Of a DNA stretch of 64,000 nt, positions 8,752-12,001 are shown in pieces; the first letter of the stretch is position 1; each line of letters begins with the position of its first letter. The notes beneath the pieces were generated by a model. That model saw nothing but the letters and a program-made list of their open reading frames with translations. It searched no databases and had not been told where the DNA came from. Source of the DNA: Spizellomyces punctatus DAOM BR117 (Eukaryota). The translations under genes were made by a program, and so were the position numbers. The DNA lies in NCBI GenBank assembly GCA_000182565.2, contig KQ257452.1; one strand, 5' to 3'.

Positions 8752-9677
8752 TTACTTCATGCAAGGAAAACGTTCAAAAAGGTCTGGAGGAACCGTCCAA
8801 TCGGCGGGGTCCCACGGATTGCCGTGACAAACCGCTCGCCGCACTAATTCATCACACAAGGCAGCAAGATCAATGTGTCGACCGTATTTGAGGATTTTCT
8901 CGCGAAGAACGAAACAAGGCATAGTCTCGGCACAGTTTTCAACGGCTGCAGGTGGCTCTAAGGTGGTAGAGAAGGGGTTCTTTGCAGGAGGGCAGCAGCT
9001 TTTGATGGGAGGGCAAGGATCGGGTGTGGGGAGGTGAGATATATGGGCGGTAATGACCGAAGACTCCTCAGCATTGGGTGTTTTGGGATTATCGTCCCAT
9101 TCTGATTGAATCGCCGGAAGGAATGTATCCTCGCCTCCCTCTTGAAAGCTTTCGTCCTCTGTATCATCTTCAGTCTGTGTTACGTCCATTGGAACTGGAG
9201 AGTAAGTCTTTACATTTGCTGGCTCAGCAAATACTTTCTCTTGACGAATGACTGGGCGAGCCTGTAACTCCGCTAATGCCTTTGCCGCAATCATCACGGC
9301 GTCGTGCGAGTGAGCATCCGCCATCTCCTGCGCAACCTCAGGAAGCCACGAGCTAAAGGTAAGAGCCAGAAGCTGTTGTAGCTGCCGGTTCTCTTGACGC
9401 AATTGCGCCCGTTCCTGACCAAGAGACGAGACCTGAGAGCGGAGAGAACGTAATTCGTTCTGGAGCTCAAAGGCCTGCTGTGCGCGTCGCTCTACATGAA
9501 GGAAAGCATGAATTTCGCGCACATGGTGGAAACCAAACCGAAAAACACGCTACCTCGCAATGCCTTTTGAGCCTGCCTGTTCTTCTCTTTCCTATGCGCA
9601 ACCATGTCCGTTATGAAGGGATTCGGCTTGGCACCTGGCTTCTTGCGCATTGGCCCAACAGAGTCCATATTGGTCAT
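8752..9677 (-). CDS. Yap/AP-1-like bZIP transcription factor with C-terminal Cys-rich domain (2 exons, intron 9492-9553)
   Basis: Splicing joins RKKPGAKP...RKEKNRQAQKALR to ERR and a leucine zipper; C-terminal IDLAALCDELVRRAVCHGNPWDP. Confidence 0.85.
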
Positions 9678-9797
9678 TCGCAAAGACGAAGAGGCGACTG
9701 TCCGTCGTTGGCGCAAGAAGAAAAAAAAAACAAGCTCAAAGGAAGAGCGAGAGCAAAAAGGAACGAGACACCTCTCCCAACACACGTCGCCAAATTT

Positions 9798-9877
9798 CTT
9801 CAAGCAAGGGATTAGTGTATTGGTTAATACACCAATGTGGATTGAACCACTGGACTGGCGACAACCAGCCCGGAAAA
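9798..9877 (-). ncRNA. Putative Fanzor omegaRNA, copy A: scaffold 9877-9813 plus about 15-nt guide AUCCCUUGCUUGAAG
   Basis: UUUUCCG-[GGCUGG UUGUCG CCAGUC]...GGUUCAAUCC...[UGGUGUAUU AACC AAUACACUA]; homologous to copy B with compensatory stem changes; matches the recalled SpuFz1 scaffold. Confidence 0.7.
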
Positions 9878-10410
9878 GCTAACTAGCTAACGAACTCCTT
9901 ACAAGTAACAAACTACTACTAGGCCCAATTACACATGCAATACATTACGGTTGTTCTAACCGGGTAACTAGCGCCCACCACCACGAGAGAAATCCTACTC
10001 GCCCTTTGATTCCGAAATTCTTGGAGGATGTTTCAGATACCAAGGTAGATCAGAATTAGACTGGGAATATGCGCGTGGGAAAAATCATCAAGATATACCT
10101 GCGATCATAGCGATATAGTAGTAGCAGCATTTGCAAGGGGTTATGTTGTATTTGTCGGGCGGACGAGGTCCTCGGCACCAGAGCAGGATTCTCATGATGG
10201 ACTTGAGAGTTGAGTGCTGGCAGATGCTTGCGAGTCGAGGGTAAAGAAACAAGAGGGAAGAAGAAGAGGGGGGGTTTATATAGAAAAAAGAGCAGATATA
10301 TTGAGTCATGCATGTATGCAGGTGGCAACTGCAGAATATTCCTCTCATAGATGGCCGCAAAGGGATAGTAATTGCCAATCATTCATTGCAGGTATTGGAC
10401 CCGTTTTTTG
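9813..10410 (-). mobile_element. Degenerate Fanzor ghost-derived locus, copy A, without intact TIRs
   Basis: Collinear conserved blocks shared with 26707-27501: TATA, 5' leader, 28-nt block, three-way junction, scaffold. Upper boundary approximate. Confidence 0.6.
10088..10195 (-). CDS. Candidate micro-ORF MRILLWCRGPRPPDKYNITPCKCCYYYIAMIAGIS
   Basis: Downstream of CTATATAAA (10283-10275); shares WCRGPRPPD and YYY with the copy B ORF. Confidence 0.4.
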   Translation of the reverse strand: MRILLWCRGPRPPDKYNITPCKCCYYYIAMIAGIS

Positions 10411-10683
10411 TTTATCTTCGTGAGGATGATGTCACAATAAATGTGGTTAATTCAACCTGGCTGCAATGCTTGCTGATGTGGGAGGGATTATGTTGCACTG
10501 AAGATGTTTGATTGGTTGAATTTGGCAAGCATATCACGTGTATTAGGTAATCACTCGGCGACGCTCGGCCTCTGGTTGCTAGGTTACTCACGTGATACCC
10601 TGTCGTGGCTGCTGTTGAAGGTCCTTCTCCGAGGTGGAAATTGGGCAATCGTTTTCCTCATCCATCACCCACATCCGCTAGCA

Positions 10684-11131
10684 ATGTCTGACGACTGGAA
10701 CCCCTCTGAAGACCCCAAGCCCCAGATTGAAGCCGGTATGTCATTTGTGCTTGTTTTGCGCAGGTGATTAGATTGTAGCATATTCACTCAATGCTAAATC
10801 TCGTCCGTTTTGGCAGACTGTGCTGAGGGTCACCATTGCCACAGCCTAAAGGCAAAACTCGACGCGTGTACTGCACGAGTGGAAGGCGGGGATGCTGGAG
10901 AAGAGACCTGCGTTGAAGAGTTCTTTGACTTGATGGTAAGCCTCCATTTCCAGCCCCTACTACAGTGTCGTGTTTGACATGTGTTCCTTTCTCTTGTGTA
11001 GGAGTGCGTCAACCACTGCGTAAGTCTGAAGATCATGGCAATCCCCTTCATAGTCAGATTTGACTGGTATCTAACTTGAGAAATTTGGAAACTTTTAGGC
11101 TGCGGACAAACTCTTTGCAAAGATGAAGTAG
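10684..11131 (+). CDS. QCR6: Cytochrome bc1 complex hinge subunit (Qcr6/UQCRH), 4 exons
   Basis: Spliced product EDPKPQIEADCAEGHHC...LDACTARV...EETCVEEFFDLMECVNHCAADKLFAKMK. Confidence 0.92.
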
Positions 11132-12001
11132 AGGAACAGTTGGCGAAGGGGAATGTTGCGGGTAGACTAATATATATCGATTTAATCCTGCGAATGGATC
11201 TGGTTGCGATTCTCCGTGGACTTTTGGATGATGAATTTTTGTGGGCCTTTTTTTTGCCTGTTGAGATGCCCCTCTGATGTGACATGGGTTCGGACGGCAA
11301 GATGATGCACCTCTTCCTTGAACCGGTTTCGTGAGGAAAAGTCGAAGCCGAGCACTAATGCATGAATACCACATGGCACAACTAAACAGTATGCAGCTCC
11401 ATAACACGGTGAAGCAACCCCATATGCAGATTACAGGGAGCGTAAAGACATATGAAAGTGCAAAACGGGGTTTCCCTCGCCATTTGCATTCATGTAAAGG
11501 ACCCATCTTCTGATGTTCGGGTTCCATGAGCCCAAGTTCTCCTTGTGCTGGAGACATCTCACCTTTCTTTTACATTTTCATCTGCCATTTAACTTCGTGA
11601 TGCTTTATAAAATTCAATGTTCTGAATGCCTTAATGGCACCCAGGTTACTACCAGAAGTTAATGGAAACCATCTTGTGCTCACAGATTTCATAAGTTACT
11701 TTTGTGTATATCCAGTGGCTCTGCAACAGCAAAAGTAGGTCCAACTCTGGTGCTATCGCTTTACTTTTTGTCGGGCAGCTGCTCCATGCTGCGACACTCG
11801 ACAGAGCCAACCTGACGTTCCTTACGCGTCACCAGGCGGAACGTCGGACCACCCAAATGGCCGACTTTGATATCCCAACCTGTTTGTCAGCGTTCGATTT
11901 TCGAAAACACTTTTGATCGACTGAATAGTTTTATTCATATAATCGACGAACAGACGAACAGATCTGTGGTCAAGCGACAAGCAAGGATTATGACGGGGAC
12001 T

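Follow-up and report, generated by a model that had tools for sequence, protein, structure and literature searches.

A Probably Immobile Ghost Spu-1 Copy with a Short-Stem OmegaRNA-Like Scaffold in Spizellomyces punctatus

Copy A, the element described here, occupies the minus strand of the interval that separates a bZIP-like gene from QCR6, two divergent genes in a 64,000-nucleotide (nt) stretch of contig KQ257452.1 (assembly GCA_000182565.2) of Spizellomyces punctatus DAOM BR117. This whole stretch is called the window, and positions are counted from its first letter. Copy A is probably a rearranged ghost Spu-1 copy that has lost its mobility, and a host role for it is not indicated. It ends in an omegaRNA-like scaffold of the SpuFz1 type with a naturally short stem 2, flanking DNA stands in the guide position, and most of both inverted repeats is lost. 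The main value of the result is that it guards copy A against being over-read as a host "guide-RNA gene", the role put forward for it in the initial annotation.

Loci of this kind are already known, and Fanzor ghost loci with their guide RNAs have been published and mined for genome-editing scaffolds. Saito et al. (2023, Nature; PMC10432273) count 134 Fanzor-less "ghost Spu-1" loci in S. punctatus, besides 42 Fanzor loci. As described there, a ghost Spu-1 element has a conserved region of about 550 nt between 30-nt repeats and no Fanzor open reading frame (ORF), with CA upstream of the 5′ repeat and a 75-nt scaffold across the 3′ repeat. The guide is 14–15 nt of variable flanking sequence, the target-adjacent motif (TAM) is CATA, and four ghost scaffolds function with SpuFz1 in human cells (PMC10432273). 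The legend of Extended Data Fig. 3 of that paper names the repeats and the omegaRNA regions as the most conserved parts of the ghost loci. A second source (PMC13434818) gives 126 unique annotated ghost scaffolds of 74–76 nt in several clades. By its sequence, copy A differs from the published description in its missing repeats and in its 66-nt scaffold. The literature search, outside which the supplementary locus and scaffold lists lay, found no repeat-less ghost locus or natural short-stem scaffold in S. punctatus.

Family membership and the omegaRNA-like scaffold

BLAST of positions 9701–10500 against the window finds one relative in the same orientation, at about 26760–27290 (copy B). Judged by its inverted repeats, scaffold positions and fold, copy B is a complete ghost-type element on the minus strand (26692–27501). 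Its 30-nt inverted repeats (26707–26736 and 27472–27501) agree at 26 of 30 positions, its scaffold is 74 nt long (26780→26707), and the flank in its guide position (26706→26692) reads CUUAUGAUCAAGUAG. All 12 scaffold positions compared with the published numbering fit: U5, C6, C7, U16, G17, G20 and C32 directly, and the other five (C34, U35, G37, A72 and A75) with a 1-nt offset, which agrees with the 74–76-nt range of ghost scaffolds given in PMC13434818. The predicted stem 2 of copy B has a 3-nt bulge, as described for ghost scaffolds. Its 5′ flank reads CATCAA before the repeat, with no exact CATA.

Copies A and B share a body of the ~550-nt type without a Fanzor ORF, with a mean column identity of 70%; the longest ORF within copy A is 108 residues. 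By this body, copy A belongs to the ghost Spu-1 family.

The scaffold of copy A is 66 nt long (9878→9813, minus strand) and begins with CUUUUCC. It is supported by its fold, by the published SpuFz1 positions and by comparison of stem 1 with copy B. Stem-loop 1 (SL1), read directly and recovered in the fold, has 8 base pairs, GGGCUGGU-UGUC-GCCAGUCC, and holds the UUGUCG loop region (9871→9852). The 17-nt linker that follows contains a 4-bp hairpin, GUGG-UUCAAU-CCAC (9850→9837, direct reading). The module closes with a 9-bp terminal hairpin, UGGUGUAUU-AACC-AAUACACUA, whose 3′ end is CACUA (9834→9813; direct reading and fold). Thus the features named in the initial annotation, namely the UUUUCC start, the UUGUCG loop on a different stem, the 9-bp hairpin and the CACUA end, are all present on the minus strand.

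All six of the named SpuFz1 positions within the first 20 nt (U5, C6, C7, U16, G17 and G20) match in copy A. These positions and the 8-bp stem support the earlier assignment, and the sequence identifies copy A as carrying an omegaRNA-like module of the SpuFz1 type. The fold of a 68-nt piece of copy A reaches −25.9 kcal/mol (z −5.2), a value that none of 200 shuffles equals. The core motif TTTTCCG-N6-TTGTCGC has just two occurrences in the 64 kb, one in each copy; 0.72 would be expected, a figure that allows for two mismatches.

Stem 2 of copy A is not that of the 74–76-nt scaffold type. The 26 nt of the distal stem 2 of copy B are represented by 8 nt in copy A, and the proximal UGGUGUA/UACACUA pairs are kept (7 bp plus the terminal CACUA). 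The scaffold had been called naturally minimised, and in this respect its short stem 2 bears the description out. The natural 9-bp stem 2 parallels engineered minimal scaffolds, and the length lies outside that of the annotated ghost scaffolds (PMC13434818).

Upstream of the scaffold, a spacer particular to copy A (9879–9912, minus strand) appears as a gap in the alignment to copy B, and contigs of other copies diverge from it at 9895–9907, where they continue with at least two different sequences. The spacer before the scaffold thus varies among copies. In copy B, the 3′ half of stem-loop 1 (26755–26767) has a 92% complementary partner in a 13-nt stretch about 330 nt upstream of it, at 27100–27112. 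Such an alternative pairing could mask the scaffold; the stretch is absent from copy A.

Inverted repeats, junctions and guide position

Copy A is without the outer 5′ inverted repeat and without the interior of the 3′ inverted repeat, of which the last 7–9 nt are kept. The absence of an intact left repeat before QCR6, noted earlier, was borne out by alignment: when the repeat was sought in 10380–10620, 65, 213 and 146 of 300 shuffles scored at least as high as the three expected repeat sequences. A comparison of the two flanks for inverted similarity gave no significant score, since 89 of 500 shuffles reached it as well. One inverted pair, 9830–9850 and 10443–10463 (71%), is not separable from chance. 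Because both repeats are damaged, copy A is probably immobile. The apparent immobility noted earlier agrees with the loss of most of both repeats.

The junctions of the element can be read directly. On the minus strand the 5′ junction reads ...CAACATA ATCCCT CCCACATC..., with CATA at 10492→10489 and then ATCCCT (10483–10492 as a whole). The 3′ junction reads ...ACACTA ATCCCT TGCTTGAAG..., where CACTA is followed by ATCCCTTGC... At the 5′ junction CATA precedes six flank-like letters and a truncated end, in place of the repeat. Aligned with copy B, the element sequence past this junction begins some 20 nt into the expected 5′ repeat.

The minus-strand 8-mer TAATCCCT at the 5′ junction is repeated at 9814→9807. 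On the plus strand this 8-mer, AGGGATTA, occurs in the window only at 9807–9814 and 10483–10490, and it brackets 9815–10482. About one such 8-mer is expected by chance per 64 kb; what is unusual is its location, at most some 20 nt from where the family similarity stops. The upstream limit of 10410 proposed earlier is too short, as contigs of related copies align up to 10470 and the 8-bp direct repeat bounds 9815–10482. Copy A extends to about 10482.

The 15 nt that immediately follow the scaffold at its 3′ end, AUCCCUUGCUUGAAG (9798–9812, minus strand; direct reading), are flanking DNA and take the "guide" position. When the insert is removed together with one of the two 8-bp repeats, CATA comes to stand directly before the full 15-nt guide sequence, ATCCCTTGCTTGAAG. 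With CATA and the first six guide letters at the 5′ junction, the element-free site would be a perfect TAM-plus-target for Fanzor. A perfect target of this sort would be ordinary retention logic of TnpB and Fanzor, as predicted for a normal insertion. Within the window the guide has four matches with up to three mismatches, against 2.2 expected, and none goes beyond chance. The copy of the guide at the 5′ junction agrees in its first six contiguous letters and in 7 of 15 overall, below the 11–13-nt activity plateau reported in PMC10432273.

The initial annotation had taken the fixed guide as a sign of a host role. This does not follow, since the guide is the DNA beside the 3′ end, as at every published Fanzor or ghost locus, and the perfect target is copy A's own empty site. 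A fixed guide is thus nothing special to copy A.

The 5′ junction admits another history, which we consider unlikely. An empty allele with CATA and target may have been cut and repaired by copying a filled copy from its 3′ flank, with the copying halted before the 5′ repeat. The copied end, joined to the resected left end, would leave CATA and six target letters before a 5′-truncated element. Such a homing scar would fit the order seen at the junction (CATA, then ATCCCT as the first six guide letters, then element sequence beginning some 20 nt into the expected 5′ repeat), the complete 3′ junction, and the lack of the 8-mer elsewhere in the window. However, an ordinary 8-bp target duplication or chance also explains the repeat, the deletion inside the 3′ repeat is left unexplained, and the discussion of Saito et al. 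(PMC10432273) gives homing by Fanzor in its host as not demonstrated. It is likewise doubtful that copy A, as an immobilised ghost locus, still gives a working, naturally minimised omegaRNA and that its 5′ junction is the scar of Fanzor-guided cutting of the empty site and incomplete copy-repair. If copy A did carry such a scar, eukaryotes would have their first natural footprint of RNA-guided homing. The junction of CATA and a partial target is a concrete place in which to seek evidence of homing.

Element body and its presence in RNA

The body of copy A carries a series of features on the minus strand. At its upstream end is the 5′ portion of the element (10283–10482), from which the outermost ~20 nt of the 5′ inverted repeat are missing; it was placed by the related contigs reaching 10470, the lack of a significant repeat and the alignment to copy B. 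A TATA box, TATATAAA (10282→10275), and a conserved leader follow (10219–10282 together), the leader being 79% identical over 48 columns to 27243–27290. Copy B has TATAAAAG as the TATA counterpart at the corresponding place. The first exon (10099–10195) has a short ATG frame and includes the most conserved block of the body, 10153–10180, with 27 of 28 letters (96%) shared with 27127–27154. An intron-like segment of 59 nt, GTATAT...CCTTGG, occupies 10040–10098. The block that adjoins the scaffold upstream (9913–9984) is conserved at 82% over 76 columns to 26783–26853 and is covered by many related contigs; in copy A, this block folds as a long minus-strand hairpin. For the canonical scaffold, Saito et al. 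(PMC10432273) report higher activity with a 5′ extension.

With its TATA box, leader, ATG and intron, the conserved ghost body (10099–10282 in copy A, 27042–27311 in copy B) looks like a small RNA polymerase II unit. At the place matching the intron-like segment, copy B has a textbook 63-nt intron, GTATGT...CTGAC...TAG.

Contigs from sequencing runs were aligned to the 2 kb of 9200–11200 at a likeness of at least 80%, for four of 24 runs; runs X9–X19, with small word shares, were excluded. The contigs show presence and not absence, they cannot show RNA ends, and their summed depths were not taken as copy number or expression level. Runs X1 and X2, from one sample, act as DNA of the same strain, with exact contigs at 9211–9940, 9993–10149 and 10346–11161 that include introns and intergenic sequence. 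Run X5 is RNA-derived: one of its contigs, which extends to 9730, has the bZIP exons spliced together. The aligned contigs number 91 (X1), 109 (X2) and 145 (X5). They lie mostly on 9870–10470, and many are 90–99% alike, whereas the flanks outside the element have single exact contigs. This difference indicates that the body is a repeated family, and that it is also found in RNA. In X5 there is no contig on 9736–9802, a hole that is no evidence of an RNA end, and the mean depth of 143 on 9803–9869 is not assignable to copy A.

A 261-nt contig of run X8, a soil metatranscriptome, joins 9898–10039 to 10099–10203 with four letters different, about 98% like copy A. It skips 10040–10098, and the same joint was not seen in the DNA-like runs. 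This contig supports splicing in a close relative of copy A. The skipped segment ends in GG rather than AG in copy A, so copy A itself may splice poorly. The ghost body, apparently a self-contained transcription unit and found in RNA, suggests how loci without a protein gene express their guides.

The short frame of exon 1 (10099–10195 against 27042–27172) has WCRGPRPPD...YYY in common between the copies. Its two largest indels between A and B, of 3 and 24 nt, keep the frame, and of the 10 family variants listed 6 are at third codon positions. Such a pattern, together with the TATA box, ATG and intron, would suit a small protein-coding or long non-coding RNA gene of the host, whose omegaRNA-like end would be an incidental structure in the 3′ untranslated region. 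We regard this as the least probable account of the locus. By direct reading the frame is not maintained between A and B in exon 2, and copy B carries transposon repeats. A protein search with the 96-residue frame of copy A, among candidates of 52–168 residues, returned one candidate and none scored; a PDB sequence search with the short reading frames of copy B gave no Fanzor match.

Pairing in the scaffold and the question of selection

The initial annotation had taken the kept pairing as selection at the copy A locus. In stem 1, 8 of the 16 positions differ between copies A and B, and all eight pairs are kept, with three pairs changed on both sides and two on one side. In a simulation of 200,000 sets of eight random substitutions, all eight pairs were kept in 183, so selection acted on the pairing at some point between the one scaffold and the other. 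In two X2 contigs of another copy, the body is followed on the minus strand by ...GCUUUUCGGCUGG, which is the GGCUGG arm of the copy A type (loose end at 9907, agreement 0.7). Copies A and B are distant family members, and an A-type arm occurs in another copy; the covariation would therefore most simply be a difference between scaffold lineages, arisen during their propagation.

Nor does the short hairpin call for selection. One distal deletion leaves the proximal stem, so that a 9-bp hairpin, made of 7 bp and two A-U pairs, would arise by itself. A trimmed 52-nt SpuFz1 scaffold is reported as active (Saito 2023, PMC10432273), and a study of 2024 (Cell; PMC11423790) states that the region beyond SL1 "may not be constrained" and gives stem-loop 2 (SL2) of PpFz1 as 4 bp. 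By this published work the distal stem 2 is dispensable, and a short stem 2 is thus neither a defect nor a sign of selection. Copy A deviates just where the ghost loci are most conserved, and its body is ordinary, which looks like damage rather than preservation. The claim that the pairing was kept by selection at this locus is not upheld.

These observations bear on the idea of a domesticated guide-RNA gene, in which a minimal omegaRNA with a fixed guide would steer Fanzor, or a paralogue with a dead nuclease, to a target in the host, a transposon or a virus. The good fold, the intact stem-loop 1 and protein-contacting 5′ nucleotides, and the loss of the mobility repeats are all as such a gene would have them, and few paralogous contigs lie over the module, a weak point. 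Yet the guide is plain 3′ flank with the element-free site as its perfect target, the window holds no other target beyond chance, the covariation falls between lineages with an A-type arm in another copy, a single deletion explains the hairpin, and the deviation is concentrated in the inverted-repeat and omegaRNA parts reported as most conserved in the family (PMC10432273). Taken together, domestication is very unlikely.

The A-type arm in the contigs of another copy also raises the possibility that copy A is an intact member of a separate, still mobile subfamily with short hairpin termini of its own. Table 1 of PMC3627910 lists three Fanzor1 families for S. punctatus, and an 8-bp direct repeat flanks the insert. 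We find this quite unlikely, as the two ends of 9815–10482 do not form an inverted-repeat pair. The extra contigs on 9803–9869 are few, and there are none past 10472, a weak argument in that it comes from contigs.

Proposed history of copy A

The history that we favour for copy A, as a rearranged and probably immobile ghost Spu-1 copy, may be put as follows. Copy A would have been inserted beside a CATA motif, between bZIP and QCR6, which are transcribed away from each other. Of its inverted repeats, the outer 5′ one and the inner part of the 3′ one would then have been lost, or they may never have been fully copied. What remains would be the family's own minus-strand transcription unit, with TATA box, leader, short first exon, intron and conserved blocks. 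This unit would end in the 66-nt scaffold, and the guide position after it would be taken by flanking DNA. Processing of the 3′ end in the manner of other ghost loci would yield an RNA of about 81 nt. With its altered linker, this RNA may or may not still load into a Fanzor nuclease. The sole perfect target of the RNA would be the element-free version of its own site, a selfish logic of homing or retention and not one of host regulation.

Several points weigh against this history. The scaffold has 66 nt, against 74–76 nt in all 126 annotated ghost scaffolds of PMC13434818, and there are 10 extra nt in the linker, the protein-contacting part. The perfect pairing of stem 1 and a module fold far above shuffles are unlike a long-decayed relic. 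The 8-bp direct repeat differs from the TA duplication proposed for SPu-1 in PMC3627910. Few non-self contigs lie on 9803–9869, so that the module looks nearly unique against the common body (a weak point, coming from contigs), and this scarcity could equally mean a distinct, possibly selected variant. Finally, the order of events is something that we infer.

Comparison with known systems

Copy A is like the ghost Spu-1 elements of PMC10432273 in having no Fanzor ORF, a body of ~550 nt and a 3′ scaffold with a flank guide; CATA also stands at its 5′ junction, before six flank-like letters in place of the repeat. It is unlike those described there in that it has no recognisable 5′ repeat, 7–9 nt of the 3′ repeat, a 66-nt scaffold and an additional 10 nt of linker that form a hairpin. 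With the canonical SpuFz1 omegaRNA (75-nt scaffold plus 15-nt guide; 8GKH) it shares U5, C6, C7, the UUGUCG loop (U16, G17, G20), the proximal stem 2 and the terminal ACUA before the guide. It lacks the distal stem 2 of that structure (the C40–G70 region), has an altered linker and has no adjacent Fanzor gene.

The trimmed 52-nt scaffold (Saito 2023), gst28.m2 (PMC13434818) and PpFz1 with its short SL2 (PMC11423790) resemble copy A in combining a short stem 2 with a kept stem-loop 1. Unlike copy A, which is known from its sequence and has a changed linker, the trimmed SpuFz1 scaffolds and PpFz1 were assayed and are active. Among transposon relics, those of non-autonomous DNA transposons of the miniature inverted-repeat transposable element (MITE) type are likewise multi-copy, have no transposase or nuclease gene, have damaged termini and sit in gene-dense intergenic DNA; unlike them, copy A carries a promoter-like region, an intron and a guide-RNA module. 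TldR (PMC10705468), a domesticated bacterial TnpB with fixed guides that acts in host regulation, is the model for the domestication idea; for copy A, no further target of the guide beyond chance lies in the window.

Searches for relatives

A metagenome scan with the most conserved body block gave no matches. The scan with the omegaRNA core gave at least 120 loci, and no relatives are among the matches listed. Of these, one locus has seven of seven stem pairs, two have six, 30 have five, and 87 have four or fewer. The best of the listed matches, L119, lies in an AT-rich, bacterial-looking gene array and is not a relative. BLAST of copies A and B against 121 retrieved metagenome loci gave alignments of 31 nt at most around the pattern. 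A match to one viral contig of 70% GC extends over 24 nt and is put down to chance. At the copy A locus, Rfam gives nothing at the gathering score, nor at E values up to 1.

Neighbouring genes

In the bZIP-like gene, exon 1 extends from the ATG at 9668 to 9554 and is followed by a 62-nt intron (9553–9492), which is absent from the RNA-derived X5 contig. A Pfam search of the separate exons did not call a bZIP domain, and the label comes from a reading of the basic region and from the initial annotation. The guide lies upstream of this gene, and 129 nt separate its end (9798) from the ATG, close to the 120 bp estimated before. The omegaRNA-like module ends about 65 nt upstream of the observed 5′ end of the bZIP mRNA. 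On the other side, QCR6 has its ATG at 10685, and its exon 2 matches Pfam UCR_hinge with an E value of 1.8e-12. Far from copy A, a tRNA gene (Rfam RF00005, 58.1 bits) lies on the plus strand at 61395–61476, the sole Rfam match in the 64-kb window.

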